DNA of 64,000 nucleotides from a virus (Duplodnaviria; Heunggongvirae; Uroviricota; Caudoviricetes). The position numbers and the translations under genes were made by a program. The stretch spans positions 108,581 through 172,580 of IMG/VR virus record IMGVR_UViG_3300022562_000051. One strand, written 5' to 3'. Below the pieces are notes generated by a model. That model was not told the DNA's origin and ran no database searches. It worked only from the letters and a program-made list of their open reading frames with translations. Below, one piece after another: positions 2,482 through 60,518 of this stretch; position 1 is the first letter of the stretch, and each line of letters starts with the position of its first letter.

Positions 2482-3255
2482 TTGGAGTTCGCTATGAAAG
2501 TGACTGTAATTACCGCAACGACGGGCAATCCCATCCTGCGGCGTAATATCGAATCCGTTGCCAATCAAGACTATCCTGACGTTCAGCATCTTATCTTCGT
2601 AGATGGGCAGCGTCCCGAGGCGAGTGCTATCATTGCTGATATGTGGGACTATGACTGGATTGCAGACGAGCGCCAGCCCAACGTTATTCAGCTTCCCTAT
2701 TCCGTAGGCAAGGATCGCTGGAACGGACACCGCATGTACGCGGCTGGTCCGTTTCTTGCCGAAGGGCAGTACGTCATGTGGCTGGACGATGATAACACCA
2801 TCGAAAAGGATCATATCTCTTCCCTGATGAAAACCATTCAGGATGAAAAGGTGGATTGGGCGTACTCATTCCGCAACATTGTGGACAAGGATGGAAAATT
2901 TCTATGCAAGGATGACTGTGAATCGCTCGGTAAGTGGGCGTCGGTCATGCACGAAAAGGACTTTTTCGTTGACGTAAACTGCTATCTGGTTCCTACCAAG
3001 CTGGCTGTATTCCTTGGACCGGCGTGGTATCGCAAGTTCCGCGAACCGGGACAGCCGGAAGTGGATCGCGTCCTGTCAGCCACCCTCATGTCAAACGGGC
3101 TAAAGTTCGCGACTACATATAAGTATACCGTGAACTATACGGTGGGTAATACATCGAATTCCGTGCAGAAGGAATTCTTTGATCGCGGCAACGCAGAAAT
3201 GCGCCGCAGATACCCCGATGGTTTGCCTTGGAAAGTGCAGGAGTTGCCTCTGTGA
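2482..3255 (+). CDS. family 2 glycosyltransferase (GT-A fold)
   Basis: VTVITATTGNP...NQDYPDVQHLIFVDGQ and DxD (WLDDDN) motifs. Confidence 0.6.
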   Translation: MEFAMKVTVITATTGNPILRRNIESVANQDYPDVQHLIFVDGQRPEASAIIADMWDYDWIADERQPNVIQLPYSVGKDRWNGHRMYAAGPFLAEGQYVMWLDDDNTIEKDHISSLMKTIQDEKVDWAYSFRNIVDKDGKFLCKDDCESLGKWASVMHEKDFFVDVNCYLVPTKLAVFLGPAWYRKFREPGQPEVDRVLSATLMSNGLKFATTYKYTVNYTVGNTSNSVQKEFFDRGNAEMRRRYPDGLPWKVQELPL

Positions 3256-3261
3256 ACATTA

Positions 3262-3962
3262 TCATGCCGTTAGCTGGACGCGGATCGCGTTTTGCTTCCT
3301 CGTCCTTAGTACCAAAGCCGATGATCCCGATTAATGGAAAACCCATGATCTATTGGGCGATTACTTCTTTGGGACTGAACGGCAATTGGTTTTTCCTGCT
3401 GCGCAAGGATGGCTTTGAGGAATTCATCAAGGCTGAAATCAAGAAGGTCGTTCCGCAAGCCAAGTTCCGAGTAATTGATTACGTAACCGAGGGACCAGCC
3501 TGTTCCGCGCTGCTCTTTGAGGAAGATATCACTTCCGATGAACTGGTGATTGCTAACTGTGATCAGATCATGGAATGGAATGCTGAATTGTTCCTCTACA
3601 ATGCTCGCTATCCCACGCTGGACGGCATGATAGTCACGTATCATTCGGACACAGAAAAGAACAGCTATGCAGCTATGGACAGGAACGGCTACGTGACAAA
3701 GCTAAGAGAAAAGGAAGTCATTAGTAACATTTCTTTGAACGGCATTCATTACTGGCGCAACGGCGAGGATTTCGTCACCAGTGCCAAGGAAATGATTGAA
3801 GCTGACGATAGAGCCTACAACGGCGAGTTTTATATTAGCCAGTCTTATAACTACCTTATTGACAAGGGTAAGAAGATTGGCATCTATCACATTCCGAACC
3901 AGATGCACCACCCCGTAGGTGTTCCGGCTGATTTGGAGAGGTATCTACATGATCATAGATAA
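3262..3962 (+). CDS. sugar/alcohol-phosphate nucleotidyltransferase (LicC/IspD-like)
   Basis: N-terminal IMPLAGRGSRF...PKPMIPINGKPMI NTP-transferase motif. C-terminal GEFYISQSY resembles LicC. Start uncertain (possible GTG at 3252). Confidence 0.5.
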
Positions 3963-4275
3963 AATGGATCGAATGATTCGTGGGTGGTTTGTTGGTGATT
4001 TCGAACCCTCTGTATTCAGGACAAAAGATTTTGAAGTGGGCTACCTGAGATTCCAGAAAGGAAGATTGGACACACCACACTATCATGCAGAAGTGACCGA
4101 ATACAACTACGTGATTCGTGGAGCCATGATCATTCAGGGAAAGACTCTCACACAAGGTGATATCTTTGTACTGGAAAAGGGAGATATTTCTGATGCGGTT
4201 TTTCTTGATGATACTGAGTTGATCGTTGTTAAGGTGCCGTCAGTACCGAATGATAAACATTTCGTGGAGTTGTAA
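3949..4275 (+). CDS. cupin-fold protein (sugar isomerase/epimerase-like)
   Basis: HYH...E metal-binding beta-barrel pattern; GAGG RBS before internal ATG. Confidence 0.4.
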   Translation: MIIDKMDRMIRGWFVGDFEPSVFRTKDFEVGYLRFQKGRLDTPHYHAEVTEYNYVIRGAMIIQGKTLTQGDIFVLEKGDISDAVFLDDTELIVVKVPSVPNDKHFVEL

Positions 4276-4276
4276 A

Positions 4277-5467
4277 ATGAATTTGTTTAAGAATGAAGAA
4301 GAACTAAGACCAGAAGACTACGTGATCGCTACTTACTGGATGCAGAGTAGCACAACCCTACGCGATGCAGCATGGGCGCTAGCCATTGGTCAGAGCGTCG
4401 GCAATCCCAATGTGCGCAATCAGTGGGAAACAGAAGAGTTGTTTGCGAATCATTCCTGCATGATCATTGGAAATGAAATCCAATTAAAGGCAAATCATTC
4501 GGGAGTGGTTCGAATTGCGTTTCCTGTAGTCAACACCGATTGGAAGGGCGACGGCATCAATCACCTGATGTGCCAGCTAATGGGTGGGCAGATGGACATT
4601 GACATTGTTCGCGTCTGCCGACTGATAGACGTTCAAATTCCAGACTCCGTGCGCCAGTATTTCCCAAAGCCAACTTACGGCATTAGCGGATTCCGCAAGT
4701 TCACTGGCAATTACAACAAGCCATTCTTGGGTGGCATCGTCAAGCCGAAGACCGGTATCTCGCCAGCCGTCCTGTTGGAAATGACCAAGCAGCTAGTGGA
4801 CGGTGGCGTGGACTTCATCAAGGAAGACGAGATTCTCTCTAATCCTGCATTCTGCTCTCTGGAAGAGCGGGTGCCAATTATCACAAACTACCTTGCAAAT
4901 CAGAGTCGAAAGGTGATATACTGTTTCTGTATCAATGGCGAACCGCATGTCATTCGTGACCGTGCGCAGTTTCTCATTGACAACGGAGCCAACGGAGTAC
5001 ACATTAACTTCTGGTCGAGCTTCGGGGTTTATCGCACACTGGCTGAAATGGGCAAGTTGTTCATTCACTACCAGAAGAGCGGAGACAAGGTAATCACGGA
5101 TGGTCGCAATCCGTATGGCATCGAATGGAACGTCCTGTGCAAGCTGGCTGGTCTAGCAGGCGTGGACAGCATTCACTCCGGTATGTGGGGTGGATACATG
5201 AGTGATGACGAAAAGGAATTGAGGAAAACTTTAAGCATTCTACGAAAAGATAACGTGGTGCCAGCCCTGAGTTGCGGTATGCATCCCGGTCTGGTACAGG
5301 TTATCAACAAGAAATTTGGCTTCGATTACATGGCAAACGTCGGCGGCGCGATTCATGGGCATCCCGGTGGAACCGTCGCAGGCGCAAGAGCCATGCGACA
5401 AGCCATCGAAGGTAGCCACGGCACGGAATATAACGAAGCAATCGAAAAGTGGGGATTAGTACAATGA
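4277..5467 (+). CDS. RuBisCO large-subunit-like protein (RLP, form IV-like)
   Basis: IVKPKTGISP (K175-like), GGVDFIKEDE (KDDE carbamyl-Lys/metal motif), VGGAIHGHPGGTVAGARAMR (GGGxxGHPxG C-terminal motif). Length ~400 aa, GGAG RBS. Confidence 0.7.
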   Translation: MNLFKNEEELRPEDYVIATYWMQSSTTLRDAAWALAIGQSVGNPNVRNQWETEELFANHSCMIIGNEIQLKANHSGVVRIAFPVVNTDWKGDGINHLMCQLMGGQMDIDIVRVCRLIDVQIPDSVRQYFPKPTYGISGFRKFTGNYNKPFLGGIVKPKTGISPAVLLEMTKQLVDGGVDFIKEDEILSNPAFCSLEERVPIITNYLANQSRKVIYCFCINGEPHVIRDRAQFLIDNGANGVHINFWSSFGVYRTLAEMGKLFIHYQKSGDKVITDGRNPYGIEWNVLCKLAGLAGVDSIHSGMWGGYMSDDEKELRKTLSILRKDNVVPALSCGMHPGLVQVINKKFGFDYMANVGGAIHGHPGGTVAGARAMRQAIEGSHGTEYNEAIEKWGLVQ

Positions 5468-6066
5468 AATGGACAGAAGACTTAAGATACGATATTAGAC
5501 ATGATAACAAAATGATCGAACAAGATTCTGTTCCTCATGAGTGTATGCCGTTTGCGTGGAACACCAAGGAAACGTCGGCTGAAAATCTAGCCGCGCTTAG
5601 AACCAAGTTTCTATCAAAGACGGGCAGTTGCAATGCCATTCTTGAGATTGGAGTAAACCGCAACGCCGAGGAATCATTCACTCAGGTCTTTATCAAGAAT
5701 AAGAGAGAGGATGCTGTCTACGTTGGTATTGACATTGATGACAAGTCCTATCTGGATGACAAGTCTAAGAACATCTACACCATCAAGAATAGTTCGTCAG
5801 ATGTTGATAACAACATGGAATTGATTCGCAAGATGGGTGTCGAGCAATTTGATTTCATTTTCATTGACGGCTGGCACAGTGTCGGTCAGGTTCTACGTGA
5901 TTGGGAATACACTCGCTGGCTCTCGCCGCAGGGTGTGGTTGGTTTCCATGACGTAACAGCCCATCCCGGTCCATTCAACTTTGTACGAGCATTGAATCGT
6001 GATAAGTGGAATGTAGAGATTCTCTGTCCATTCGACTTCGGTATTGGATTCGCTTGGAGAAAATAA
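5464..6066 (+). CDS. class I SAM-dependent methyltransferase (CmcI/TylF-like)
   Basis: ILEIGVNRNAEES...FIFIDGWHS...VVGFHDV. ATGA overlap with the RLP stop. Confidence 0.5.
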   Translation: MKWTEDLRYDIRHDNKMIEQDSVPHECMPFAWNTKETSAENLAALRTKFLSKTGSCNAILEIGVNRNAEESFTQVFIKNKREDAVYVGIDIDDKSYLDDKSKNIYTIKNSSSDVDNNMELIRKMGVEQFDFIFIDGWHSVGQVLRDWEYTRWLSPQGVVGFHDVTAHPGPFNFVRALNRDKWNVEILCPFDFGIGFAWRK

Positions 6067-6692
6067 TGTCTGCGCATAATGGAGTACACTATCCACCATG
6101 GAGAGTCACCAGACTCAAGAAGTTAGAGTCTCTTTTCGGTGCTGAGTTTTTCGCTGGCAAGAAAATTCTTGAGATAGGAGCAGGCTTGGGCATAATCGGC
6201 GCACACATCAGAGACAATTGGGGTGGTGACGTTTACTTTACGGAAGGTCGAAGTGAATTGGTCGAGAAGATCAATAGCTCCAAAGCCTTTCTGGTTGATC
6301 ACGATGATTTCTGGTCACTGCCGTATAAGTTCGATTTCATTATTCATTGGGGTACTCTGTATCATCTGGATGAATGGAAAGCCGATCTGGAAATAACAGT
6401 AAGTCATTTGACACCGGATGGAATTCTTGCCTATGAGGGAGAGATTCTGGACAGTGCCGAAGACGAGGAAGTGAAGGTGAATGAGCCTAATGGGGACGAT
6501 CAGGCTTTGTGGGGTATTGGCACTCGTCCGTCTGCACTGGCAGTGGAAAATGAATTGAAGAGGTTGGGTCTTTCGTTTGAAAGGTACGATGATGAAGACC
6601 TGAACACAGAACATCAAAATTATACTTGGAAACTAACAGACTCCAAGGTGTGGAAGAATGGTCAAAGGCGATTTTGGATAGCAAGAAAATGA
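6066..6692 (+). CDS. class I SAM-dependent methyltransferase
   Basis: Motif I ILEIGAGLGIIG; start set at MSAHNG. Confidence 0.5.
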   Translation: MSAHNGVHYPPWRVTRLKKLESLFGAEFFAGKKILEIGAGLGIIGAHIRDNWGGDVYFTEGRSELVEKINSSKAFLVDHDDFWSLPYKFDFIIHWGTLYHLDEWKADLEITVSHLTPDGILAYEGEILDSAEDEEVKVNEPNGDDQALWGIGTRPSALAVENELKRLGLSFERYDDEDLNTEHQNYTWKLTDSKVWKNGQRRFWIARK

Positions 6693-7135
6693 TTTACATA
6701 GCACATCGTGGATTATTGAACGGACCTTCCGAATGGGAGAATGCGCCGTGGGTACTTGAGGAAGCCATTCATGAGTGTGGCAACGCTGAGTGTGACCTGT
6801 GGCTGACCGAGGATTTCAAGTTTGCCTTGGGACATGACGCGCCCAAGCACATCGTTAATGAGAATTGGTTGTGGGATAATCAGACCGGTCTATGGATTCA
6901 CTGCAAGAACATTGCGGTGTTAGAATATTTCAACCGCGAGGGAATTTTCTACCATTACTTCTGGCATGAGAATGACACGGTTACTCTCACCAGCAAGAAT
7001 TACATTTGGGCATATCCCGGCAAGCAGCCGATTGCAGGCAGCATTGCGGTGATGCCTGAGTGGAACAACGATGACATTTCGGTGTGCGATGGCGTCTGTA
7101 CAGACTACGTTCTGAGATACAGAGGCGACCTATGA
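6689..7135 (+). CDS. glycerophosphodiester phosphodiesterase (GDPD)-family protein
   Basis: IAHRG...E...ECDLWLTEDFKFALGHD matches the GDPD catalytic HR(G)/E/D/HD pattern. Confidence 0.55.
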   Translation: MIYIAHRGLLNGPSEWENAPWVLEEAIHECGNAECDLWLTEDFKFALGHDAPKHIVNENWLWDNQTGLWIHCKNIAVLEYFNREGIFYHYFWHENDTVTLTSKNYIWAYPGKQPIAGSIAVMPEWNNDDISVCDGVCTDYVLRYRGDL

Positions 7136-7986
7136 AGACTGCCGTTCTAATATCTGGTAGAATAGAACCAGAAGACATTCAACGTATTCCTAATTTGATG
7201 GAACAGATCATTGAGCCGTATAAGGCTGATGTATTCATTGATACTTGGATTCCATATAAGGGTACGTCACACAAGCTAGGACTTCATAGAGTCTACGAGG
7301 AATTTGAAGGGAACCATTCGCCTGAGTTTCCGGCAGTAGATATCAATGCCTTTGCCGAAGCATATAAACCAAAGATGATGACGCTTGACAGCTTCGATGA
7401 TATTCCTCTGACGTACCAAATTCGATCCATAGCCAATACCTTTCCACTTCATTCCGATACTCTTACGGGGGCGCGAGTAGCCAACAGGAAGGAAAACATA
7501 TTCTTCATGTGGTATAAGCTATACAAGGCTAACAGGCTAAGAAAGCTATACGAGGAAGTCAATCGAATCCGATATGATAGAATTATCAGGACACGATTTG
7601 ACTCTTCATTCAGCTATTTCCCTGCGGACATAATTCCCGCGCCGAAGACTCTGTATATTCCAGTTGTCGGTGACTATGATGGTGGTATAAACGATCAGTT
7701 TGCACTAGGCGATTCGCAGGCAATGGACTTGTATTGTGATTTGTATCTTGAGATATTCAGGTATTGGATAGCTGGTGTCTCACAGCATCCAGAATCACTA
7801 TTGAAGGTTCACCTTGAAGTCAACAGACTGAACGTGAAGAGATTTCACTGTAAGCAGTTTCTAAGGGGAATAGAAATCCCATCCGATCCACTTCTTCTGA
7901 ATCAAGCTTCCATAGAATTCAATCAGGAATTGAAGAGAATGAAGAAGATACGGGACGTTGAGAACGACGTAATTTACAAAGGGTAA
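7132..7986 (+). CDS. hypothetical protein (glycan-locus member)
   Basis: ORF in operon with sugar genes. Confidence 0.35.
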   Translation: MKTAVLISGRIEPEDIQRIPNLMEQIIEPYKADVFIDTWIPYKGTSHKLGLHRVYEEFEGNHSPEFPAVDINAFAEAYKPKMMTLDSFDDIPLTYQIRSIANTFPLHSDTLTGARVANRKENIFFMWYKLYKANRLRKLYEEVNRIRYDRIIRTRFDSSFSYFPADIIPAPKTLYIPVVGDYDGGINDQFALGDSQAMDLYCDLYLEIFRYWIAGVSQHPESLLKVHLEVNRLNVKRFHCKQFLRGIEIPSDPLLLNQASIEFNQELKRMKKIRDVENDVIYKG

Positions 7987-7990
7987 TAAA

Positions 7991-8719
7991 ATGAATCCAT
8001 GTATTGTTTCAATTTTTCAGGACAACGTTGACATGAAGACTGTCGGGCTGCAAAAGTCCGTGGTCGAGAAGTACAACCCCAAGAAGTATCGCCATTATCA
8101 GTTCAAGTTGAACATGCCACATGGTGTAGCCATTGATTACTTTTGGGCAACCAATGGATGTGTCAACGCCGCATTCAAAGCTGCGATTGGTGAGAATGAA
8201 GTACCCCATTCGTTTGACCATGATGTAGTCCTGATTCTGGACATTGACTGTATTCCAGTTAGCGAGCGAGCCATTGAAAAGTATATCAGTGCAGCCGCAG
8301 CGGGAAGACTAATCGGCAATGCCCAACGCTCAAATCACTTAGATAATGGGCAGCATCTTTTCGCAGCCTCGTCCTGCGCTGCTATTTCTAAGGAGACTTA
8401 TATCAAGATTGGAATGCCTAGTGCATTCGAAAATCGTCCTCGCTCGGATGTATTAGAGGAATACACTTGGGCAGCAGAAGAAAATGGAGTTCCGGTTGAC
8501 TTAGTGATGCCTTTGCGGTATAATGAACCACCAGTGAGATTTGCATGGGAAGTTAATCAGCCGCCATATTGGGCATTAAAAGATGGTATGCCAGTGTATG
8601 GAGTCGGAACAACGTTTGGTGATGATGAAGGTGATCTTTTCTACCATCAATTTCAGATATTTCACTCGGATCACCAGCAGAAGTTCTGGCAGAAGTGTGA
8701 GTCTATTCTAACGGAGTAA
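7991..8719 (+). CDS. hypothetical protein (possible GT-A-like, DID motif)
   Basis: VLILDIDCIP; weak. Confidence 0.3.
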   Translation: MNPCIVSIFQDNVDMKTVGLQKSVVEKYNPKKYRHYQFKLNMPHGVAIDYFWATNGCVNAAFKAAIGENEVPHSFDHDVVLILDIDCIPVSERAIEKYISAAAAGRLIGNAQRSNHLDNGQHLFAASSCAAISKETYIKIGMPSAFENRPRSDVLEEYTWAAEENGVPVDLVMPLRYNEPPVRFAWEVNQPPYWALKDGMPVYGVGTTFGDDEGDLFYHQFQIFHSDHQQKFWQKCESILTE

Positions 8720-8721: not shown

Positions 8722-9453
8722 ATGAAAGAAGGTTATACGCACATTGCAGTTGTTTTGGATAGTTCCGGTTCGATGGGTACGATCATTGATGATACCATCG
8801 GCGGGTTCAATACTTTTCTAAAGGCACAGAAGGAAGCAGAAGGCGAAGCGACGATGACGTTGGTCGAATTCGCATATCCAAGTTTCCTCAAGAGACAGGA
8901 AATTCATCATGGTTGGGATTACAGTGGTCCCAAGGAAGCGTCAATCAACGTCAACGTGAAGTTCGATTTCCAGCCGATCAAGGCGGTCCCTGAACTTAGC
9001 TATGAAAACTATCGTCCGAATGGCGGCACTCCGCTGCTCGACACCATTGGTGAAGTCATGTCGCAGACTGGCAAGCGTCTGGCTGGTATGCCAGAATCGC
9101 TGCGTCCGTCGAAGGTTCTGTTCGTGATTATCACGGACGGCGAAGAGAACGCATCCCACGTTTACAACTTCCAGAAGATCAACGAAATGATTTCGCATCA
9201 GAAGATGATCTACAAGTGGGAGTTCGTATTCCTTGGTGCAAATCAGGACGCTATCAGGGAAGCTTCGAAGATGGGAATCTCCATGCATACTTCCATGTCT
9301 TATGGAACGAGCAAGGGAGAAATGACTGCCACATATGGTGTGTTGGCATCCAAGACGCAGGCATTCCGCGCAGTGAATGCGACGGCTGACGCACTAGCCT
9401 TTACAGACGAAGAACGTGCAGCAGCCAAGCAAAGTGGAGATATCAGTGGCTAA
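8722..9453 (+). CDS. von Willebrand factor A domain protein
   Basis: MIDAS DxSxS (VLDSSGSMGT) and downstream GGTPL/ITDGEE motifs. Confidence 0.6.
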   Translation: MKEGYTHIAVVLDSSGSMGTIIDDTIGGFNTFLKAQKEAEGEATMTLVEFAYPSFLKRQEIHHGWDYSGPKEASINVNVKFDFQPIKAVPELSYENYRPNGGTPLLDTIGEVMSQTGKRLAGMPESLRPSKVLFVIITDGEENASHVYNFQKINEMISHQKMIYKWEFVFLGANQDAIREASKMGISMHTSMSYGTSKGEMTATYGVLASKTQAFRAVNATADALAFTDEERAAAKQSGDISG

Positions 9454-9643
9454 TAGAAGTGACTTTTTCAAGGCGAAGATTCCGCGTCACATCAAGAAGA
9501 TGTTGTCGTTGAATTACACAGATGATCATGAACGGGCTGTGATGCGCAAGCTTTTTCAGTCCGCACACGCCAGCCATGTTGCGTACCGATTGAAGGTCCG
9601 TAGCGGCAAGGTCGGCGCGAATGATGATGGTGGAGAAGAGTAA
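9416..9643 (+). CDS. hypothetical small basic protein
   Basis: ORF only; overlaps vWA gene end. Confidence 0.25.
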   Translation: MQQPSKVEISVANRSDFFKAKIPRHIKKMLSLNYTDDHERAVMRKLFQSAHASHVAYRLKVRSGKVGANDDGGEE

Positions 9644-9873
9644 TGGAAGAGAAAGCACCAGAGGTTGAAGTCCAAGAAAACCCAAAGTTGCGTGGACACG
9701 ATTTCTCGGGTTGGTTTCGCGGCGTGGCTCCGGTCTTTCGTCGTACCAAGGAAAGGGATCACTCAGCCAATCAATTGAAGCTATATAGTCCATGCTCTTG
9801 CGGCAGTGGAAAGAAGTATAAGTGGTGCTGCAAGGGCAAGGATAAGTTTGTCCTGAATACGGATGCGGGGTAG
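9643..9873 (+). CDS. SEC-C motif small protein
   Basis: C-terminal CSCGSGKKYKWCC = SecA-type SEC-C zinc motif. Confidence 0.5.
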   Translation: MEEKAPEVEVQENPKLRGHDFSGWFRGVAPVFRRTKERDHSANQLKLYSPCSCGSGKKYKWCCKGKDKFVLNTDAG

Positions 9874-9938
9874 TTCAGAAGTAGAACGCTGGATTCATAA
9901 TCCAGAGGTCGGTGGTGCGAATCCATCCCCCGCTACCA
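9864..9938 (+). tRNA. tRNA-Met/Ile2-like (anticodon CAT)
   Basis: Cloverleaf by eye: anticodon arm CTGGA-TTCATAA-TCCAG, T-arm GGTGG-TGCGAAT-CCATC, 3' CCA encoded. Apparent U1-U72 mismatch. Confidence 0.6.
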
Positions 9939-9948
9939 TGGAGTAGCC

Positions 9949-10146
9949 ATGTATATCGAAAACGAGCGCAAGACTACCAAGATGCTTAATACGAGAGTAG
10001 ATTCAGAAATGTTCTACTCTCTAAAAGCATTGTCTGACAGAACCGGCATGGGAATCAGCCCTATCATGCGGCTGGCAATCGCGCAGCTTTTAGAAAAGGC
10101 GCGTGAGAAGAAACCCTCAAGTTGGGAAGAACTAAAGAATCTATAA
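9949..10146 (+). CDS. hypothetical small protein
   Basis: ORF. Confidence 0.3.
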   Translation: MYIENERKTTKMLNTRVDSEMFYSLKALSDRTGMGISPIMRLAIAQLLEKAREKKPSSWEELKNL

Positions 10147-10147
10147 G

Positions 10148-10459
10148 GTGAATAAAATGCAACTGAAAGTCGTAAAGCTAATGAGTGGTGAGGAAATCTT
10201 CGGTGAAGTTGTCGAAGAGTCCGATACCGATATCACAATCAGGAATCCGCTGGCTATCATGCTAGGACGCTCCCCAAATGGTGACGTTCAGGTTGGATTC
10301 GTTCCTTTCGCAATGTATCTCGGCAGGGAACCAAGGGTTACATTTAAGATCAATAACCTCGTCATGATCAACGAAGTAGTTGACGAGCGGATGGTAAACC
10401 AGTATAATAGTGCCTTCGGTGGCATTGTGACCCCGCCCAAACAGCTAATTGTTGGATAA
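10148..10459 (+). CDS. hypothetical protein
   Basis: ORF with AGGTG RBS. Confidence 0.35.
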   Translation: MNKMQLKVVKLMSGEEIFGEVVEESDTDITIRNPLAIMLGRSPNGDVQVGFVPFAMYLGREPRVTFKINNLVMINEVVDERMVNQYNSAFGGIVTPPKQLIVG

Positions 10460-11040
10460 TGTTCATTAAAGACATATACAGTCACAAAGATGGCGAAAAG
10501 TTCATCCGCGATAATCATCCGAAAGAACTAGACGATATTTTTGAGGCTGTCGCTTCTCTGGATGTTAGAGAGGTTTTTTCTAAGTCTTCCTTAGAAGTTA
10601 ACAAACCCTCTATCGTGTTTTCTCCTATTGCGATTAATAAGGGATTGAAAAATTTCTTGTGTGATCGTGGCTGGACTCGCCGCACTGACGTTGGGCGAAA
10701 GGGATTTGTGGAACCCCGTCTAAAACTAAGTCATAAAGAATTTCGCGAACTGGATGGGTTGAAAAATAAGGTTGGGCTGGAAGTCCAGTTTGGCAAGTAT
10801 TCCTTTATGGCATATGACATTTTTACCAAAATGCCAATCTTTGCTAACAGGGGTTTGATTGATTGTGGAATCGAAATTGTGGCTTCCGCAAAGATGATCA
10901 AGTATATGAGTACCGGAGTGGGATCGTATACACAAATTGTGACCGACATGAGAGAACGCGGCGTAGCTGATATTGATATACCCACTATTGTAATCGGATT
11001 AGATTGCACCAATAAAGAATATCAGACAGTTGGAATATAA
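10459..11040 (+). CDS. hypothetical protein
   Basis: ORF, TAATG junctions on both sides. Confidence 0.35.
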   Translation: MFIKDIYSHKDGEKFIRDNHPKELDDIFEAVASLDVREVFSKSSLEVNKPSIVFSPIAINKGLKNFLCDRGWTRRTDVGRKGFVEPRLKLSHKEFRELDGLKNKVGLEVQFGKYSFMAYDIFTKMPIFANRGLIDCGIEIVASAKMIKYMSTGVGSYTQIVTDMRERGVADIDIPTIVIGLDCTNKEYQTVGI

Positions 11041-13598
11041 TGGATTTTTACACAAACGTCAGGGTCTACGGCAAGTTTATCCTGTATCGCGGCGTCGAAG
11101 GCGGGAAACATGTTTCCCGTCGCGTAGCCTATCGTCCGACGTTCTTTGTTCCGACTAAGAACAAATCGAAGTACAAGACTCTCGCTGGCAACTATGTCGA
11201 ACCGATTGAACCGGGAGACATTAACGATGCGCGGGAGTTTCTTGATCGCTATCGGGACGTAGACACGTTTCCGATCTACGGAAACAACCGCTACGAGTAT
11301 ACTTACGTTTCTGACCAGTTTCCCGAAGACGTACTTTGGGATCGTAAGTATATCAACGTTGCGTATCTGGATATCGAAGTGGGTTCCGAGAATGGATTCC
11401 CCGAACCAGAACGTGCTGCCGAAGAAGTGCTAGCCATCACGGTCAAGATCAATGACCGATTCTTCACTTTCGGTACTGGCGAATACAAGCCGCATCGTGA
11501 TGATGTAGATTACACACGCTGCAAGGACGAGGTTGAGCTACTCAAGGCGTTCCTCGCATTCTGGTCGGTGCGGTATCCTGATATCATCACTGGCTGGAAC
11601 GTTAAGTTCTTCGACATTCCGTACCTGATCAATCGCATGATTCGCGTCTTGGGTGAGAAGGAAGCTAATGTCTTTTCACCATGGAAGAAGGTCAAGGCTC
11701 GCGAAACCTATATCATGAATCGTAAGCACCTGTCTTACGAGGTCTTCGGTATTGCCACGCTGGATTATCAAGACCTGTATCGCAAGTATTCCCCGAAGTC
11801 CTCGCAAGAGTCTTATCGGCTGGATCACATTGCGTTCGTGGAGCTTGGTGAGAAGAAGTTGGATTACTCCGAATACGAGACTCTGCACCAACTCTATAAG
11901 TTCGATTTCCAGAAGTACATCGAATACAACATTCATGACGTATATCTGGTCGAGCAGATCGAAGAGCGCGGACTGTACTCGTCCAAACTAATTGAACTAG
12001 CCTTGACGCTAGCCTATGACAACAAGTGTAATTACGAGGATGTATTCATGCAGACTCGTATGTGGGATGCCATCATCTTCAATCATCTTAAGAAGAAGGG
12101 CATTGTCATTCCGCAGCAAAAGTTGGGTGACAAGGATAGTGCGTATTCAGGAGCATACGTCAAGGAACCGATTCCCGGCATGTATCATTGGGTGGTGTCG
12201 TTCGACCTGAACTCACTGTATCCGCATCTGATCATGCAGTACAACATTTCGCCAGAGACTTTGATCGAACCGGATCAGTACACGCCAGAAATGCGTGAGA
12301 TTCATCCGACTGTCAGTGTGGATTCGATTCTGAATGGCGAGTTAGACCTGTCTTGTCTAAAGGCTCTTAACGTTACGGTAACACCTAACAAGCAGTTCTA
12401 CACCACTGCCAAGCGCGGCTTCCTTGGCGAAATCATGGACACCATGTATAAGGATCGCAGCCGCTACAAGAAATTAGCCATTGAGTCTAAGAAAAAGTTG
12501 CAGGAAGTCAAGGACGATCCGAATCAGGTTGCGTACATGCAGCGTGAGATTGCGCGATATAATAACCTACAGATGGCGAAGAAGGTATCCCTGAACTCCG
12601 CATACGGTGCTATCGGTAATCAGTATTTCCGGTTCTTCGATATTCGAAACGCGGAAGGAATTACGCTAGGTGGACAGTTGTCTGCTAGGTGGATAGAAAA
12701 CCACATGAATGCTTATTTGAATAAGCTTCTCGGCACCACCAACGAGGATTACGTGATCGCTTGCGATACCGATTCCATGTATCTGAATCTGGATAGTCTG
12801 GTCAAGAAGGTCTATGGTGCGGATGGCAAGGTAAGCGCACCAAAGTCCAAGATCATCGAATTTCTGGATAAGGTCTGTGAGCAGAAGATGCAGCCGTTCA
12901 TTGACAAGTCGTTCAAGGAATTGGCTGACTACGTTAATGCGTATGAGCAGAAGATGTTCATGAAGCGCGAGTCCCTGTGTGATCGTGCTATCTGGACTGC
13001 TAAGAAACGTTACATTCTCAACATCTGGAACGAGGAAGGTGTTGAGTACAAGGAACCAAAGATTAAGATCACCGGTCTGGAAGCTATTAAGTCTTCCACG
13101 CCAGCCGCATGTCGCTCCAAGATTCGTGAAGGCATCAAGCTGATTCTGGACAAGGATGAAGGCACGGTCATTAATTTCATTGAGGCGTTCCGTACTGAAT
13201 TCCGCAAGCTGCCGGTTGAGGATATCTCGTTTCCTCGCGGCGTCAACTCGCTGGACGATTACAAGAGCGAGGATCACCTGTATCGGAAGGGAACTCCGAT
13301 TCACGTAAAGGGCGCAATGCTCTACAATCAGATGCTTCTCAAGAAGAAGCTCGGTAACAAGTTTGAGAAGATCAAGGGTGGCGAAAAGATCAAGTTCTGC
13401 TATCTAAAGCAGCCTAATCCATTTTACAACAACACTATAGCGTTCATAAATACTCTACCGAAAGAACTTGGAGTTCACGATTACATAGACTACGATACGC
13501 AATTCGATAAGTCGTTCGTAGAACCAATGAAGACAATCCTCAATGCCATCGGCTGGAAGGCAGAAAGGGTGTCTACGTTGGACGCTTTCTTTTCGTAA
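11040..13598 (+). CDS. DNA polymerase, family B (T4 gp43-like)
   Basis: 852 aa. Exo I YLDIEV, pol motifs DLNSLYPH, K...YGA, YCDTDS. Confidence 0.85.
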   Translation: MDFYTNVRVYGKFILYRGVEGGKHVSRRVAYRPTFFVPTKNKSKYKTLAGNYVEPIEPGDINDAREFLDRYRDVDTFPIYGNNRYEYTYVSDQFPEDVLWDRKYINVAYLDIEVGSENGFPEPERAAEEVLAITVKINDRFFTFGTGEYKPHRDDVDYTRCKDEVELLKAFLAFWSVRYPDIITGWNVKFFDIPYLINRMIRVLGEKEANVFSPWKKVKARETYIMNRKHLSYEVFGIATLDYQDLYRKYSPKSSQESYRLDHIAFVELGEKKLDYSEYETLHQLYKFDFQKYIEYNIHDVYLVEQIEERGLYSSKLIELALTLAYDNKCNYEDVFMQTRMWDAIIFNHLKKKGIVIPQQKLGDKDSAYSGAYVKEPIPGMYHWVVSFDLNSLYPHLIMQYNISPETLIEPDQYTPEMREIHPTVSVDSILNGELDLSCLKALNVTVTPNKQFYTTAKRGFLGEIMDTMYKDRSRYKKLAIESKKKLQEVKDDPNQVAYMQREIARYNNLQMAKKVSLNSAYGAIGNQYFRFFDIRNAEGITLGGQLSARWIENHMNAYLNKLLGTTNEDYVIACDTDSMYLNLDSLVKKVYGADGKVSAPKSKIIEFLDKVCEQKMQPFIDKSFKELADYVNAYEQKMFMKRESLCDRAIWTAKKRYILNIWNEEGVEYKEPKIKITGLEAIKSSTPAACRSKIREGIKLILDKDEGTVINFIEAFRTEFRKLPVEDISFPRGVNSLDDYKSEDHLYRKGTPIHVKGAMLYNQMLLKKKLGNKFEKIKGGEKIKFCYLKQPNPFYNNTIAFINTLPKELGVHDYIDYDTQFDKSFVEPMKTILNAIGWKAERVSTLDAFFS

Positions 13599-13613: not shown

Positions 13614-14537
13614 ATGTTGATGGCACTATTGGCATTCCTCGCGGGGTTTGCCCTCTCTGGAACAGCAGCCTACTATTCCATTATTGGACTGGTGGCTATC
13701 TTTCCCGGTGCGAAGATTCCAATTATTGTCATGGGCGTTGCGCTGGAATTCGCGAAGCTGGTTGCAGCATCGTGGATTTATCGTAACTGGCGAACTTCAC
13801 CGAAGTTGATCAAGGGATATATGACACTCGCTGTCATCGTCCTCATGTTCATTACTTCGATGGGAATCTTCGGTTTCCTTTCCAAATCACACTTAGACCA
13901 TTCTCTGACTGTTGGCGTTGAAACCACAGCCCAAATCCAGACCCTAGACGGGCGGATAGCAGCCGGGGAAAGCCGGGTTGACTTCATTTCGCGTCAAATA
14001 AAGTCAATTGACGATTCAATGACGAAATATATTGACATGGGGTATGTGACCAAAGGGCTAGAGCAGATGAAGAGGTTCGAAGCGGATCGCAAGGCTCTTG
14101 AAGAGCAGCGAGTCGCGGCTGAGTCCGAGGTTCTGGAACTTAAGGCTAAGAGGAATGAGCTTGAAGTTAGCGTCAAGAAACAGCAAGCCGAAGTCGGTCC
14201 TCTGCGCTACATAGCTGAATTAGTTTATGGTGAAGCAGACGCAGCATCCCACTTTGATGAAACTGTAAGATGGGTTATTATTCTGTTGGTGGCGGTCTTT
14301 GATCCTCTTGCTATTGCCTTGTTGCTGGCTGGTAACATATCGCTAATGCAAAGAGTGGTGCAAAACAACATACCATATTCGGTTGAAGTTCCATTAAAAT
14401 CCACCGAAAAGGTTGACGAAGAGGCTGAAATCGTGTATACTGCGAATAGTGAGCCAGTTCAACCGATGGTCGTAGAAAATCCACAGGTTGAGGAAGATGA
14501 TTGGCACAAGAACCGCGAAGGTTGGTATCAGAGGTAA
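13614..14537 (+). CDS. membrane protein with coiled-coil region
   Basis: Three N-terminal TM helices, central heptad-rich region, C-terminal TM. Confidence 0.4.
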
Positions 14538-18083: not shown

Positions 18084-19070
18084 ATGGCTATTTTGGTTAC
18101 TGGTGGATGTGGGTTTATAGGTAGCAACTTCATTCGGCGTTGGTTATCCATGAATGATGAGGAAATCATCAATCTGGATAAGATGACTTATGCGGCTGAC
18201 CCCACGATTAACGAAACGTTCAAGAAAGATTCCCGCTATCACTTCTACAAGGGTGACATTGCTGATCTGAATGACGTTGCGACGGTCATGATGGGCTGGC
18301 GTCCTCGCGCAGTCATCAACTTTGCTGCTGAGTCCCACGTTGACAACTCCATTGCAAACGCATATCCGTTCGTTAACACAAACGTCTTCGGTACGTTCAA
18401 TCTGCTGGAATGCGTTCGCCAGACCGATCCAACCATTCGATTCATTCATGTGTCTACGGATGAAGTCTATGGATCGTTGGGTAGGTATGACAGTCCGTTC
18501 ACCGAAAAGACTCCATACGATCCGCGTAGTCCGTACAGCGCAAGCAAGGCAGCGTCCGATCACTTAGTGTCAGCTTATCACCACACCCACAAGCTACAGA
18601 CAATTATCACTAATTGCTCTAATAACTATGGTCCGTGGCAGAACCCCGAAAAGCTAATTCCTGTCATTATACGCAATGCCTTGGTAGATGCCCCGATTCC
18701 CATTTATGGCAACGGATTAAATATTAGAGATTGGATTTTCGTTACGGATCATGTAGATGCGTTGATAGAAATTCTTGAAAGAGGCGTTATTGGCGAATCC
18801 TACAATATTGGTGGGAACGCAGAATTTGAAAACCTACAGATCGCCAAGATGATTCTAACTATCCTTAATAAGCCCCATGAGCTTATTAAGTTTGTTGAGG
18901 ATCGCAAGGGACACGATTTCAGGTACGCCATAAATAATGATAAGGTCTTCTTGGACATTGGTTGGCGTCCAAGGACTAAGTTCATAGATGGTCTGGAAAA
19001 GACCGTGCTGTGGTATCAAAATCATACACAATGGATACAATCATGTCTGAATCGCTCCAAGAATGGGTAG
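18084..19070 (+). CDS. rmlB: dTDP-glucose 4,6-dehydratase
   Basis: GGCGFIGSNF Rossmann; catalytic YSASKA; NYGP. Confidence 0.8.
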   Translation: MAILVTGGCGFIGSNFIRRWLSMNDEEIINLDKMTYAADPTINETFKKDSRYHFYKGDIADLNDVATVMMGWRPRAVINFAAESHVDNSIANAYPFVNTNVFGTFNLLECVRQTDPTIRFIHVSTDEVYGSLGRYDSPFTEKTPYDPRSPYSASKAASDHLVSAYHHTHKLQTIITNCSNNYGPWQNPEKLIPVIIRNALVDAPIPIYGNGLNIRDWIFVTDHVDALIEILERGVIGESYNIGGNAEFENLQIAKMILTILNKPHELIKFVEDRKGHDFRYAINNDKVFLDIGWRPRTKFIDGLEKTVLWYQNHTQWIQSCLNRSKNG

Positions 19071-19999
19071 ATAACGTACCCACAATTCCAAAGACTCTCG
19101 GTATAATCCTAGCGGGTGGTAAGTCCACAAGGCTATATCCGGCTACGCTTGTCTCTACAAAGCAAGTCCTGCCGATCTACGATAAGCCTCTGATCTACTA
19201 TCCACTCACTACCCTGATGCTAGCTGGCATCAAGGATTTTATCGTTATCTCCACACCGAAAGAAAAGCCGGTCTTCGAAGAGTTGTTCTATGACTCTAAG
19301 AATACGCTCGGCATCAACATTCGGTTTCTGACGCAGGACTATCCTCGCGGCATTGCCGACGCATTTAATGTAATCAATGATGCGTTCCTTGAGGACATTG
19401 AACAGTATGAAGCCTTTGCTCTTGTGCTAGGAGACAATATCTTCCACGGTGCTGCGCTGTCAGCTATGATGGAGAGTGCCATGTATCGCGTGTGGGAAGA
19501 TGGTTACTGCGTGATCTTTCCGACACTGGTTACAAATCCAAAGCGATTTGGTGTGGTAGAATTTGGTGATGAGGGCAAGGTTGTTTCTCTGGAAGAAAAG
19601 CCAGAGCATCCGAAGAGCAACTATGCCATCACCGGTTTGTACTTCTTCCCCAAGGATGTACTGGAACGCATTCGTTATTTGAAGCCATCCGTTCGCGGAG
19701 AATTGGAAGTTACTCATTTGGTGGAGACATATCTTCACAGCGGAAACCTGATTGGTCAGAAACTCCTGCGTGGTATGGTGTGGTTCGATACTGGAACACC
19801 CGATTCCATGATGGAAGCTTCGACCATGATACAACTAATTCAGCGGCATCAGGGATTGATGGTTGGATGCCCACATGAAGTTGCCTACGAAAAGGAATGG
19901 ATTGATAAGGAAGACTTGCTAGCAACAGCGGGATTGTGTGAAAAATCAACTTACGGTGAATACCTAATGAAACTCTTGGAGAAAGATAATGCTGAGTAA
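19031..19999 (+). CDS. rmlA: glucose-1-phosphate thymidylyltransferase
   Basis: GIILAGGKSTRLYP...; start ambiguous (19031 or 19043). Confidence 0.75.
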   Translation: MDTIMSESLQEWVDNVPTIPKTLGIILAGGKSTRLYPATLVSTKQVLPIYDKPLIYYPLTTLMLAGIKDFIVISTPKEKPVFEELFYDSKNTLGINIRFLTQDYPRGIADAFNVINDAFLEDIEQYEAFALVLGDNIFHGAALSAMMESAMYRVWEDGYCVIFPTLVTNPKRFGVVEFGDEGKVVSLEEKPEHPKSNYAITGLYFFPKDVLERIRYLKPSVRGELEVTHLVETYLHSGNLIGQKLLRGMVWFDTGTPDSMMEASTMIQLIQRHQGLMVGCPHEVAYEKEWIDKEDLLATAGLCEKSTYGEYLMKLLEKDNAE

Positions 20000-21308
20000 A
20001 GAACAGAAGGAACAATACATCAAGGAACTGGCGGCTGATCTGCCACCTTGGGCGTACAACGCTGCGGCTACCTTCGAACCGGGAAAGACGCCAGTCTACT
20101 ACTCCGGTCCCTACTTCGATGAAAAGGAAATTGAAGCTGCGCTCAAGACGTTCCTGACCGGCAAGTGGCTGGTGACAGGAACCGAGGTAGCTAAGTTCCA
20201 GTGGAAGTTCGCTCGCAAGTTTGGAGTGAAACACGCACACATGGTCAACTCAGGTTCCTCTGCGAATCTGGTCATGCTGGCTGCGCTTAAGAAATATTAC
20301 GGTTGGACTGAGTACACCGAGATTCTAGTATCGCCGGTTGGATTCCCAACTACGATTGCACCAATTGTGCAGAATGGCATGAAGCCGGTCTTCGTTGACA
20401 TTGAAATGGAATCGCTCAACTTTGACCTTTCGAAGCTTGAAGCAGCTATCACGGCTGATACCAAAGCTATCTTCGTGTCGCCAGTGCTTGGCAATCCACC
20501 AAATATGGATTGGCTGGAATCCATAGCCAGCACCTATGGACTGGTTTTGATTGGTGACAATTGTGATTCTCTTGGTTCCATTTGGGATGATAAGGAAATC
20601 ACCGATTACTACGATGCATGGTCATGCTCGTTCTATCCGGCGCACCACATTACCACTGGCGAAGGTGGTATGATTTGTTCCAATAACGAGGAAGTTGTCA
20701 ATCTGGCTCGTTCTATTTCGTGGTGGGGCAGGGATTGCGTCTGTATCGGGCAGGCTAACCTCAAGCCGGATGGATCGTGCGGCAAGCGTTTCTGCAATTG
20801 GCTGCGCAACTATGACGGCATCGTAGATCACAAGTACGTCTTCGCTAACATGGGTTATAACCTCAAGCCGCTGGATATGCAGGGTGCGATGGGTTCCGTG
20901 CAGCTAGACAAGTTCGATGAGATTCACGCTCGCCGCCGCGAAAGCTATAGGCGAATCAGCGCACTAATCGAAAGATACGTAGCTGACTTTGAAGGAATGC
21001 GGCAGGCTCGCGTAGTCAAGGAACACGAATTGGCTGAGACTTCGTGGTTTGGTGTGCCGATTGTGTGCGAGACTCCCGAAGTCAAGGCTAAGTTGCAGGC
21101 TCATTTCGAAGCACACAAGATTCAGACTCGTAACTACTTTGCTGGAAACATTCTACTGCATCCCGGTTATGAGCATCTGGACGATTATCGGGACTATCCA
21201 TTTGCCAACCTTGCACTGAGCCATGTGTTCTTTGTGGGCGCAGCACCACACTATGACGATGCTATCTTTGATTATTTCGAAGAGGTATTAAAGAAGTGGA
21301 ACCAGTAA
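19989..21308 (+). CDS. DegT/DnrJ/EryC1-family PLP-dependent sugar aminotransferase
   Basis: Fold-type I aminotransferase of nucleotide sugars, 439 aa. Confidence 0.65.
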   Translation: MLSKEQKEQYIKELAADLPPWAYNAAATFEPGKTPVYYSGPYFDEKEIEAALKTFLTGKWLVTGTEVAKFQWKFARKFGVKHAHMVNSGSSANLVMLAALKKYYGWTEYTEILVSPVGFPTTIAPIVQNGMKPVFVDIEMESLNFDLSKLEAAITADTKAIFVSPVLGNPPNMDWLESIASTYGLVLIGDNCDSLGSIWDDKEITDYYDAWSCSFYPAHHITTGEGGMICSNNEEVVNLARSISWWGRDCVCIGQANLKPDGSCGKRFCNWLRNYDGIVDHKYVFANMGYNLKPLDMQGAMGSVQLDKFDEIHARRRESYRRISALIERYVADFEGMRQARVVKEHELAETSWFGVPIVCETPEVKAKLQAHFEAHKIQTRNYFAGNILLHPGYEHLDDYRDYPFANLALSHVFFVGAAPHYDDAIFDYFEEVLKKWNQ

Positions 21309-21808
21309 TCTTTAAACCACAGGTCTTTGAAGACAATCGCGGGGCTTTCCGCGAACTGTTGAATATGAGCAAGGCACCATGGGATGGTATGCACTTTGTT
21401 CAGAGCAATCTTGTGACCAATAAGAAAAATGTATGGAGAGGACTGCATTACCAGTATGAGTGTCCGCAGGGAAAGCTGGTAACTGTTCTGCGTGGTGCAG
21501 TCTTCGACTATATAGTAGACTTGAGATTAAGATCGTCTAATTTCGGCAGAGTCCAAAAGTTTCATCTTACATCTGATTCGGGAGATATGCTTTGGGTTCC
21601 ACCGTGCTTCGCTCATGGTTATCTGACACTGGAAAACAATACGCAGTTCATGTATAGCATATTCGGTGAGCCTTACAACAAGGAAGATGAACACAGCATT
21701 ACACCAACTGATTTTCCACAGATAAAGTTTGATCTGAATGGTAAAGTTATCATGTCGGAAAAGGATCAGAAGGGACTGTTTCTAAAGGACGCGCCAATCT
21801 ATGAGTAA
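21296..21808 (+). CDS. rmlC: dTDP-4-dehydrorhamnose 3,5-epimerase-like cupin
   Basis: FEDNRGAF...VLRGLHYQ...KLVTVLRGAVFDYIVDLR...VPPCFAHGY. Confidence 0.7.
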   Translation: MEPVIFKPQVFEDNRGAFRELLNMSKAPWDGMHFVQSNLVTNKKNVWRGLHYQYECPQGKLVTVLRGAVFDYIVDLRLRSSNFGRVQKFHLTSDSGDMLWVPPCFAHGYLTLENNTQFMYSIFGEPYNKEDEHSITPTDFPQIKFDLNGKVIMSEKDQKGLFLKDAPIYE

Positions 21809-60100: not shown

Positions 60101-60176
60101 TGGCACGTAGTTCAGCGGTAGTAACGTCTGGCTGTTAACCAGAATGTCGTAGGTTCGATCCCTACCGTGCCAGCCA
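60101..60176 (+). tRNA. tRNA-Asn (GTT)
   Basis: Cloverleaf by eye; loop CTGTTAA; CCA encoded. Confidence 0.65.
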
Positions 60177-60182
60177 AATTTC

Positions 60183-60256
60183 GGGGGCTTAGTATAATGG
60201 GATTATCTCTCGCTTGCACCGAGAAGACAGGGGTTCGACTCCCCTAGCCTCCACCA
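60183..60256 (+). tRNA. tRNA-Ala (TGC)
   Basis: G3-U70 pair present; loop CTTGCAC. Confidence 0.65.
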
Positions 60257-60261
60257 AATAT

Positions 60262-60341
60262 GGGACGGACTGTCGTATAACGGCAATTATATCTGGCTCT
60301 TAACCAGTTTGATCAGAGTTCGAATCTCTGCGGTCCCACCA
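60262..60341 (+). tRNA. tRNA-like (possibly Lys-CTT); 5' half non-canonical
   Basis: Good T-arm, acceptor 3' strand and CCA; D/anticodon region cannot be folded cleanly by eye. Confidence 0.35.
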
Positions 60342-60513: not shown

Positions 60514-60518
60514 ACAAT

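Follow-up and report, generated by a model that had tools for sequence, protein, structure and literature searches.

The RuBisCO-like protein (RLP) described here is encoded in a nine-gene island (2494–8719) within a 64,000-nucleotide (nt) stretch of viral DNA, the window (IMG/VR record IMGVR_UViG_3300022562_000051, positions 108,581 to 172,580). The island is made of a scaffold and a swappable supply cassette. The scaffold encodes a GT2-family glycosyltransferase (GT2), a methyltransferase (MT23), a minimal protein with the fold of glycerophosphodiester phosphodiesterases (mini-GDPD) and two proteins called ORF8 and ORF9; the cassette encodes a stand-alone nucleotidyltransferase (NTase), a small cupin, the RLP and a second methyltransferase (MT24). 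The NTase is the obligate partner of the RLP, and sequence comparison makes us lean slightly towards the view that the island is a phage kit to make and use an unusual nucleotide-activated sugar, in which RLP and cupin would feed the NTase. The RLP, which the original prediction, drawn from the letters of the window, listed among the other genes, tells us more about the island than any other part does.

Gene boundaries were taken from the list of open reading frames (ORFs) and from the genes called separately on three metagenome contigs that match the DNA at 100% identity. Both confirmed nine co-directional genes, all on the + strand, each abutting or overlapping the next; neighbouring genes overlap by 4, 14, 4, 1, 4 and 4 nt at six junctions and are 1 and 4 nt apart at the other two. 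The outer coordinates given previously were correct, but several inner starts had been placed at the upstream TTG or GTG codons of the longest ORFs; the ATG or GTG codons listed here are probably the true starts. The genes are as follows (lengths in amino acids, aa).

2494..3255, + strand: GT2-family glycosyltransferase of the scaffold (253 aa; Pfam Glycos_transf_2)
3252..3962, + strand: NTase, stand-alone sugar-phosphate nucleotidyltransferase of the 4EVW-like subfamily (236 aa; phrog_3980)
3949..4275, + strand: small cupin with an HxH...E metal motif (108 aa; phrog_24762)
4277..5467, + strand: RuBisCO-like protein RLP, form IV (396 aa; Pfam RuBisCO_large)
5464..6066, + strand: MT24, class I S-adenosylmethionine (SAM) methyltransferase of the Methyltransf_24 type (200 aa; Pfam)
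6066..6692, + strand: MT23, class I SAM methyltransferase of the Methyltransf_23 type, part of the scaffold (208 aa; Pfam)
6689..7135, + strand: mini-GDPD, minimal GDPD-fold protein (148 aa; motif and predicted fold)
7132..7986, + strand: ORF8, protein with a GT-A/nucleotide-diphospho-sugar-transferase fold, putative transferase (284 aa; weak DUF7796 similarity)
7991..8719, + strand: ORF9, unassigned scaffold protein with a conserved LDIDC(I)PV motif, a putative transferase at most (242 aa)

Co-directionality is not special to the island, since 68 of the 70 long ORFs of the window lie on the + strand. The overlaps, which suggest translational coupling, make an operon plausible, and the gene order is not a chance arrangement, because it is kept in a related phage (L157, whose family-B DNA polymerase is 68% identical at the amino acid level). 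The overlaps speak for the operon proposed in the original prediction, but scans of the window for sigma-70 promoters and terminators found sites no commoner than in shuffled sequence, and the window does not contain the T4 late-promoter consensus TATAAATA. No transmembrane (TM)-like segment is present in any of the nine proteins. Searches of 50,697 GenBank phage records with the island DNA (blastn) and with the RLP (tblastn) gave no match, and hence no annotated close relative exists there.

Loci related to the island were fetched by pattern-seeded scans, the best 80 of each scan being kept, and were searched with the window proteins and with family hidden Markov models (HMMs). The main RLP set consisted of 80 loci with an RLP identity of at least 35% and flanks of at least 4 kb on both sides. 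An NTase gene was present in 79 of these 80 loci; it lies within 500 bp of the RLP gene in 70 of them and shares its strand in 76 of the 79. Carriers of the NTase-RLP pair are T4-like phages, SAR11, Legionella, Verrucomicrobia, Azospirillum, Turneriella, CPR and DPANN; among phages, the pair recurs in hundreds of aquatic contigs. A cupin gene was found in 52 of the 80 loci and directly abuts that of the RLP in 45 of the 52; a GDPD-like gene was found in 65 of the 80. Among 61 well-flanked IMG/VR loci seeded with the cupin, a set that shares contigs with the RLP-seeded one, the RLP was present in 55 and the NTase in all 61. Not one of 24 loci with distant (at most 31% identical) form-III-like RuBisCOs has an NTase, cupin or GDPD-like partner. 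The RLP loci also contain SDR epimerases/dehydratases (38 loci), GT11, DegT, FkbM-type methyltransferases and WavE, and GT9 occurs in SAR11. In Azospirillum (L042), a 652-aa RLP/cupin/NTase 'fusion' proved to be a long-ORF artefact of ORF extension.

The best 120 RLP database clusters are 59–100% identical, and matches to the RLP were found in 331 stretches of IMG/VR and in 69 loci of GTDB representative genomes. The GTDB loci include a complete Ca. Pelagibacter chromosome (59% identity), a Verrucomicrobiae chromosome (58%), a Beckwithbacteria metagenome-assembled genome (MAG) that carries the full cassette (L018, 49%), DPANN MAGs (41–48%), Azospirillum oleiclasticum (42%), three cultured Legionella (38%) and Turneriella (35%). 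About 80 RLPs have been described on Myoviridae-type phage contigs (~200 kb, from many environments) and cluster with Beckwithbacteria; their function was called unclear, and a glycosyl/nucleotidyl context was not mentioned (Jaffe et al., 2018, PMC6389311). The clade described here is almost certainly the same phage/Beckwithbacteria 'form IV-like' clade. What is new is the NTase partner, the cupin partner, the glycan setting, the cellular carriers and the clade-specific active-site signature of phage RLPs; a search of the literature for links between RLPs and cytidylyltransferases, glycosyltransferases, SAR11 myophages, IV-GOS or post-2019 phage work brought up nothing of relevance.

The division of the island into scaffold and cassette emerged from the comparison with other phages. 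In the related phage L157, the same place is occupied by GT2-[HAD-NTase]-MT23-MT21-miniGDPD-ORF8-ORF9, where MT21 is an FkbM-type methyltransferase and the products shared with the window are 68% (GT2), 44% (MT23), 60% (mini-GDPD), 51% (ORF8) and 63% (ORF9) identical. Cupin, RLP and MT24 were not detected in the 20 kb fetched of L157. Two proteins encoded just upstream of the island (1504–2064 and 2147–2458) also keep their position in L157, with 31% and 57% identity respectively, and therefore travel with the scaffold. They had been described as Fn3-like and secreted; no Pfam family, fn3 included, matches them at E ≤0.001, but the first does have a signal-peptide-like N-terminus.

Across phage loci, a HAD-NTase fusion alternates with the combination of stand-alone NTase, cupin and RLP. 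In mini-GDPD loci without RLP, 55 of 57 NTases are longer than 350 aa, and the long forms examined are HAD_2-NTase fusions; RLP-plus-cupin loci have a short NTase, usually with 48% identity or more to that of the window. Fusions with either domain order were found (L157 7390–8760, L081 3247–4620, L011 761–2131, L112 6577–7683). Islands of cultured cyanomyoviruses, neither with an RLP, present further combinations: SynMITS9220M01 carries NTase-HAD, cupin, ORF8-like, mini-GDPD and kinase genes, and S-SM2 carries a tandem NTase, a class II aldolase-family protein, GmhA-like isomerases, mini-GDPD and an ORF8-like protein. In cyanomyovirus islands, mini-GDPD, ORF8 and NTase have as neighbours GmhA-like isomerases, a class II aldolase/epimerase-family protein, kinases and HAD phosphatases; a cupin homologue is present in two cultured cyanomyoviruses.

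The RLP itself belongs to the RuBisCO superfamily (Pfam PF00016 RuBisCO_large, 2.1e-37, 129.5 bits versus a cut-off of 30.1, residues 152–398 of the long ORF). Its PDB relatives are form III proteins and MtnW enolases (4nas, 2oej), at about 1e-38 to 1e-44. It falls below the curated cut-offs of all the characterised families that it matches: type III RuBisCO (TIGR03326, 183 versus 497), MtnW (NF007095, 159 versus 409; TIGR03332, 129 versus 514) and the 3-oxo-isoapionate-4-phosphate decarboxylase OiaX (NF042437, 147 versus 700). The active-site register was set by profile alignments to 2cwx, 8dht and 3nwr, and the spinach numbering used here, transferred via the form III alignment, with no structural superposition, is taken by us from established motif knowledge. 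In 110 distinct family members (35–100% identity), the equivalents of K175, K177, K201, D203, E204, S379, G381 and G403 are invariant and that of G404 is nearly so; in the numbering of the RLP, the Mg/carbamate site is K156, K158, K182, D184 and E185. The substitutions E60G, T65N, W66P, N123G, H294Q, K334Y and G380C are invariant in the same set, R295K and H298D are nearly invariant, and H327 is His, occasionally Gln. A single-sequence alignment to 4nas had put H264 at the H294 position; the three profile alignments put Q266 there, and H264 varies (H/F).

Since H294, R295, H298, K334, E60 and N123 are replaced across the clade, the RLP is not a carboxylase. A true CO2-fixing or AMP-pathway RuBisCO of form III type, boosting host carbon metabolism, would agree with type III RuBisCO being the best NCBIfam match by score (8e-54) and with Pyrococcus horikoshii form III being the top PDB profile match; with a score of 183 against 497, K334, H294, H298, E60 and N123 invariantly replaced, and neither AMP phosphorylase nor ribose-1,5-bisphosphate isomerase noticed among the frequent neighbour families, we give this explanation practically no credence. 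The residue pattern is that of an enzyme that is active, depends on Mg for enolisation and is strongly constrained, and the RLP is a predicted Mg-dependent enolising or isomerising enzyme outside all characterised RLP types. The phosphate-site regions of RuBisCO are partly kept, with G381, G403 and G404 on one side and a Lys at R295, H327 and S379 on the other; since both are partly conserved, one may speculate that the substrate carries two anionic groups.

Methionine salvage offers another explanation for an RLP next to a cupin. The closest solved RLPs include the MtnW enolases 4nas and 2oej, the island encodes two SAM-using methyltransferases, and RLP-cupin pairs are known from the methylthioadenosine (MTA)-isoprenoid shunt of Rhodospirillum rubrum; RLP and cupin would then be a methionine/MTA-salvage module (MtnW-type enzyme plus acireductone dioxygenase, or Rhodospirillum-type RLP isomerase plus cupin methylsulfurylase) that stands in a glycan island by chance. 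This is very improbable. The MtnW score (159) is far below the cut-off of 409, and the clade has an invariant Gly at the N123 position, which we take to be that of the general-base Lys in MtnW. No MtnA, MtnB, MtnK or MtnX was present among the annotated frequent neighbour families of the RLP, the near-constant neighbour (79 of 80 loci) being the NTase, with glycan genes around it across very distant taxa; and methyltransferases release S-adenosylhomocysteine, not MTA.

The NTase matches phrog_3980 (1e-49). Its scores with Pfam NTP_transf_3 (21.8, cut-off 27) and with the NCBIfam sugar-1-phosphate NTases (~1e-8) are all under cut-off. Compared with the PDB, the family profile matches 4EVW best (1e-35), an NDP-sugar pyrophosphorylase from Vibrio without an assigned substrate, with ManC, GlmU and RmlA next (1e-13 to 1e-7); G9, G11, R13 and F14 of the N-terminal G-x-G-x-R motif are invariant. 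No LicC model or structure was present among the NCBIfam matches or the best 60 PDB profile matches, and the LicC-like or cytidylyl label that the original prediction gave to this protein is no more than a putative one, the best relatives being of the 4EVW, ManC, GlmU and RmlA types.

The mini-GDPD carries the motif HRG..EN..ExD..GHD, in which H6, R7, E34, D36 and H49 (and D50) are invariant or nearly so. The Pfam GDPD family (PF03009) gives no match that reaches its gathering score for 6626–7135, and the profile match to the GDPD 7e0v (3e-5) covers the first 52 residues only. The AlphaFold model (pLDDT 96) is a compact barrel, and Foldseek aligns it with PDB GDPDs along their whole length (probability 1.0, TMq ~0.6). 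By this model the protein has the GDPD TIM-barrel fold with catalytic-type residues kept and is a predicted enzyme, so that its earlier description as GDPD-like holds as far as fold and motif go. The 62 loci seeded with mini-GDPD contain an NTase in 52, an ORF8 homologue in 34 (abutting mini-GDPD in 23) and an RLP in 4; the partners of mini-GDPD are ORF8 and NTase, not the RLP. Its reaction could be the supply of a phosphate ester or the trimming of a phosphodiester. A HAD protein as a substitute for mini-GDPD was considered and rejected: HAD occurs in only three well-flanked RLP loci, all three with mini-GDPD.

A cytidylyltransferase of the LicC type that makes a CDP-alcohol, together with a GDPD-like enzyme that supplies or processes the phospho-alcohol, would place a phosphodiester-linked head group on a glycan, as proposed in the original prediction. 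The linkage behind that proposal is real, the fold and catalytic motif of mini-GDPD being genuine and NTase and GDPD-like genes co-occurring in the mini-GDPD loci (52/62) as in the RLP loci (65/80). Five loci of Planctomycetales and DPANN MAGs (L019, L022, L032, L037 and L038) combine RLP-NTase with a full-length Pfam GDPD (~250 aa) in the absence of mini-GDPD, and this GDPD adjoins a second NTase paralogue, a point in favour of the proposal. The Legionella and Tatlockia loci (L046, L047, L049 and L050, from a Tatlockia MAG, Legionella nautarum, L. maceachernii and L. drozanskii) have a conserved block around RLP-NTase and are the only ones in which a LicD-family phosphotransferase gene, divergently oriented, stands beside the pair. 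No cupin or GDPD-like gene was detected in these four loci; three of the four contain an FAD monooxygenase, and the three Legionella loci share proteins of 148 aa and 113 aa and two unassigned ones of ~330 aa. LicD was therefore discarded as a general partner of the RLP. Since the window and the non-Legionella loci lack LicD or any other phospho-alcohol transferase (LicD, TagF or CDP-alcohol-transferase homologues), the head group is a minority possibility, which we regard as unlikely. The affinity of the NTase to sugar-1-phosphate NTases, with LicC outside its best 60 PDB matches, and the GT-A/nucleotide-diphospho-sugar-transferase fold, not a LicD fold, of ORF8 and GT2 argue in the same direction, and the RLP needs a carbonyl substrate, which neither choline-phosphate nor glycerol-phosphate provides.

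The other proteins of the island were identified with varying certainty. The cupin matches phrog_24762 (4e-35) and, under the cut-off, Pfam Cupin_2 (20.8 versus 27.2). Its motif 1, H44-x-H46-x4-E51-x6-G58, is conserved, with H44 and E51 invariant and H46 nearly so; its PDB relatives are weak (small Cupin_2 proteins, a so-called mannose-6-phosphate isomerase and KdgF). GT2 (ORF 2482/2494–3255) matches Pfam Glycos_transf_2 (4.4e-10, 40.2 bits versus 23.3) and, weakly, the NCBIfam models of PglI, NodC and TuaG; it is soluble, with no TM segment. MT24 and MT23 match Pfam Methyltransf_24 (1.5e-6, 29.5 bits versus 26.3) and Methyltransf_23 (8e-12, 45.6 bits versus 27) respectively, and PDB searches with the two gave no informative relative. 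MT24 was present in 27 of 125 RLP loci and is an accessory of the supply cassette. It is fused to mini-GDPD in L116 (386 aa, 9265–10425) and to a GT1 in L132 (802 aa, 278–2686), which ties it to the same pathway as mini-GDPD and the transferases. ORF8, with its GT-A (nucleotide-diphospho-sugar-transferase) fold and weak DUF7796 similarity, is a probable transferase. ORF9 had no Pfam, NCBIfam, PHROG or PDB match and no hhalign similarity to ORF8; its relatives are phage homologues only (63% identical in L157, 42–46% in L094–L096), and it is a possible transferase.

A second sugar island lies at 18084–22628. It encodes an RmlB-like 4,6-dehydratase, an RmlA-like NTase, a 439-aa enzyme of the DegT/DnrJ/EryC1 family, an RmlC-like 3,5-epimerase and an RmlD-like reductase, of which RmlB and RmlA are also present in L157. 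As judged from these homologies, the genes make up a dTDP-deoxyhexose pathway, whose product could be used by the transferases of the first island. HMMs, profiles and predicted folds upheld the assignments of GT2, NTase, cupin, RLP, two SAM methyltransferases and the GDPD fold, together with the GT-A fold; and the sugar-phosphate NTase, GT2, GT-A-fold enzymes, two SAM methyltransferases and the second, Rml-type island bear out the original description of a glycan-type biosynthetic island.

The following pathway is proposed. The RLP and the abutting cupin, of metal-dependent isomerase/epimerase type, would convert a ketose phosphate of host central metabolism to a rare sugar phosphate, and the stand-alone NTase would couple this product to a nucleoside monophosphate taken from a nucleoside triphosphate; MT24 may optionally methylate an intermediate or the product of the cassette. 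Delivery of the right sugar phosphate to the NTase would elsewhere be the job of the HAD domain or of GmhA- or aldolase-type enzymes, and RLP and cupin may do the job of the HAD domain because the supply cassette stands where the HAD-NTase fusion stands in related phages. The scaffold proteins GT2, MT23, mini-GDPD, ORF8 and ORF9 would then attach the activated sugar to an acceptor and add methyl groups to the glycan, with mini-GDPD working with ORF8 and NTase on a phosphodiester-containing intermediate. The scaffold transferases probably also draw on the dTDP-sugar from the Rml island 10 kb downstream, and the final product would be a short glycan built by transferases and methyltransferases.

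Several points weigh against this pathway. What was observed is which genes are present and co-occur, their folds, the conservation of catalytic residues and the cassette swap; the functional reading is built on homology, predicted folds and gene neighbourhood, and the role assigned to the RLP on neighbourhood and residue conservation. The island contains no kinase, mutase or reductase, so that, on paper, steps are missing between a central metabolite and the NTase substrate. Instead of acting before the NTase, the RLP could follow it and use an NDP-linked compound. Nine RLP-plus-cupin loci also carry a long NTase (more than 350 aa, the size of the HAD-NTase fusions), and RLP plus cupin is therefore not a strict replacement of the HAD domain. 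As 58 of the 62 mini-GDPD loci have no RLP, the role of mini-GDPD is independent of that protein. Frequencies obtained from pattern-seeded, best-80 scans are not an unbiased census, and some contigs labelled cellular, from MAGs or single-amplified genomes, may be phage DNA.

Cellular carriers hold the RLP-NTase cassette in envelope-glycan loci. In the phage island every enzyme is soluble, and genes for a lipid carrier, flippase or polymerase are lacking; host-envelope remodelling and virion glycosylation are consequently both possible. Our estimate places host envelope glycans first, as a possible acceptor somewhat short of an even chance, and rates virion proteins and some other acceptor lower, each being unlikely to about the same degree. 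DNA is a further candidate target. The phage is T4-like, and T4-like phages glycosylate their DNA, some of them encoding NTase-type or isomerase-type genes for the donor sugar; the island might then supply the sugar for DNA hypermodification (glycosylated hydroxymethylcytosine or hydroxymethyluracil type), as in T-even and RB69-like phages. We consider that there is little chance of this, as the RLP-NTase cassette is also found in cellular loci of lipopolysaccharide (LPS)/capsule type (with GT9, LicD, SDR and DegT), and as an oligosaccharide is a better match than a single base adduct for an island with two methyltransferases and three transferase-like proteins. In addition, no dCMP/dUMP hydroxymethylase was noticed in the ~64 kb that the window covers of a ~172-kb genome, and the only thymidylate-synthase-like ORF noticed by eye has a ThyX-type motif.

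The remainder of the window contains the following features. The family-B DNA polymerase (11040–13598) is ~54% identical to gp43 of Synechococcus cyanomyoviruses, and by sequence the window is T4-like myovirus DNA. A public contig of 172,580 bp encodes RLP and ORF8 proteins identical to those of the window. Directly after the island, a 243-aa protein (8722–9453) matches phrog_7371 (3e-54, unknown function) and no Pfam family; it begins, by eye, with a DxSGS-type start typical of vWA domains, and it is not present in L157. A lone tRNA-Met gene (CAT, 9864–9938) stands after the glycan island and before the genes of the BglII-like protein and the DNA polymerase. The BglII-like ORF (10459–11040), immediately upstream of the polymerase, is restriction-endonuclease-like and is assigned to Pfam Endonuc-BglII in the gene table of an identical contig. 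Right after the polymerase, a 307-aa protein (13614–14537) has, by eye, several hydrophobic N-terminal segments and a long coiled-coil-like region. The ThyX-type thymidylate synthase motif (RHR...S) is encoded at 35287–36015 and is followed by a ribonucleotide-reductase-like ORF (36020–37927), both read by eye in translation. At the end of the window, 34 tRNA genes covering most amino acids form a dense array on the + strand (60101–63997).

Compared with known systems, the RLP shares with MtnW/YkrW (2oej, 4nas) and other characterised form IV RLPs the fold, the KPK motif, the K-x-D-E Mg/carbamate site, the loss of carboxylation residues and the expected enolisation of a phosphorylated keto compound. 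It differs from them at N123, H294, R295, H298 and K334 and scores below every curated cut-off, and its context is anabolic (NTase, glycosyltransferases), whereas that of MtnW/YkrW is salvage or catabolic. The arrangement of the island resembles nucleotide-heptose synthesis (GmhA, kinase, the HAD phosphatase GmhB, HddC/HldC NTase), in which a ketose-phosphate converter, a phosphate-processing enzyme and an NTase precede glycosyltransferases, and it shares mini-GDPD, ORF8 and NTase homologues with the 'LPS-like' islands of the cyanomyoviruses S-SM2 and SynMITS9220M01. In contrast to both, the isomerase slot is filled by RLP plus cupin, and the island lacks kinase and HAD genes. The likeness to LicC/LicD and CDP-alditol (ribitol, arabinitol, glycerol) systems lies in the broad NTase fold, which activates a phosphorylated small molecule for a surface glycan, but the phage is without LicD and its island without a reductase. 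Known GDPDs (GlpQ/UgpQ; 3no3, 7e0v, 1o1z) and the GDPD domain of phage K gp155 have the TIM-barrel and the His/Arg, Glu/Asp and His-Asp motifs in common with mini-GDPD, which is 148 aa long instead of 220–280 aa and is linked to an NTase and a GT-A-fold protein, not to glycerol-phosphate uptake or a virion enzyme. With chlorovirus PBCV-1, mimivirus and mycobacteriophage virion glycosylation, the likeness is at the level of folds only.

A phage 'LPS-like' gene cluster as such is a familiar feature of cyano- and pelagimyoviruses. The place of an RLP in it is another matter, since every RLP characterised so far acts, to our knowledge, in salvage or catabolism. It is possible, in our estimate with a little under an even chance, that this RLP clade is anabolic and makes, with its dedicated cupin, a sugar phosphate that the dedicated NTase activates for surface or virion glycans. 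If this is true, it would be the first biosynthetic, glycan-related function of an RLP and would bring to glycobiology a kind of reaction not known before and, probably, a novel nucleotide sugar, whose sugar residue we would guess to be pentulose-derived or derived from another ketose. It would also explain why the gene is present in hundreds of IMG/VR contigs. The NTase-cupin-RLP cassette, three small soluble proteins, is the first testable lead to the function of phage RLPs. The RLP route would be a modular alternative to the HAD-NTase route of sister phages; T4-like phages would diversify their glycans by exchanging the cassette that supplies the sugar while the transferase scaffold stays fixed, and such swapping would bear on phage-host recognition in systems of the SAR11 and cyanobacteria types.

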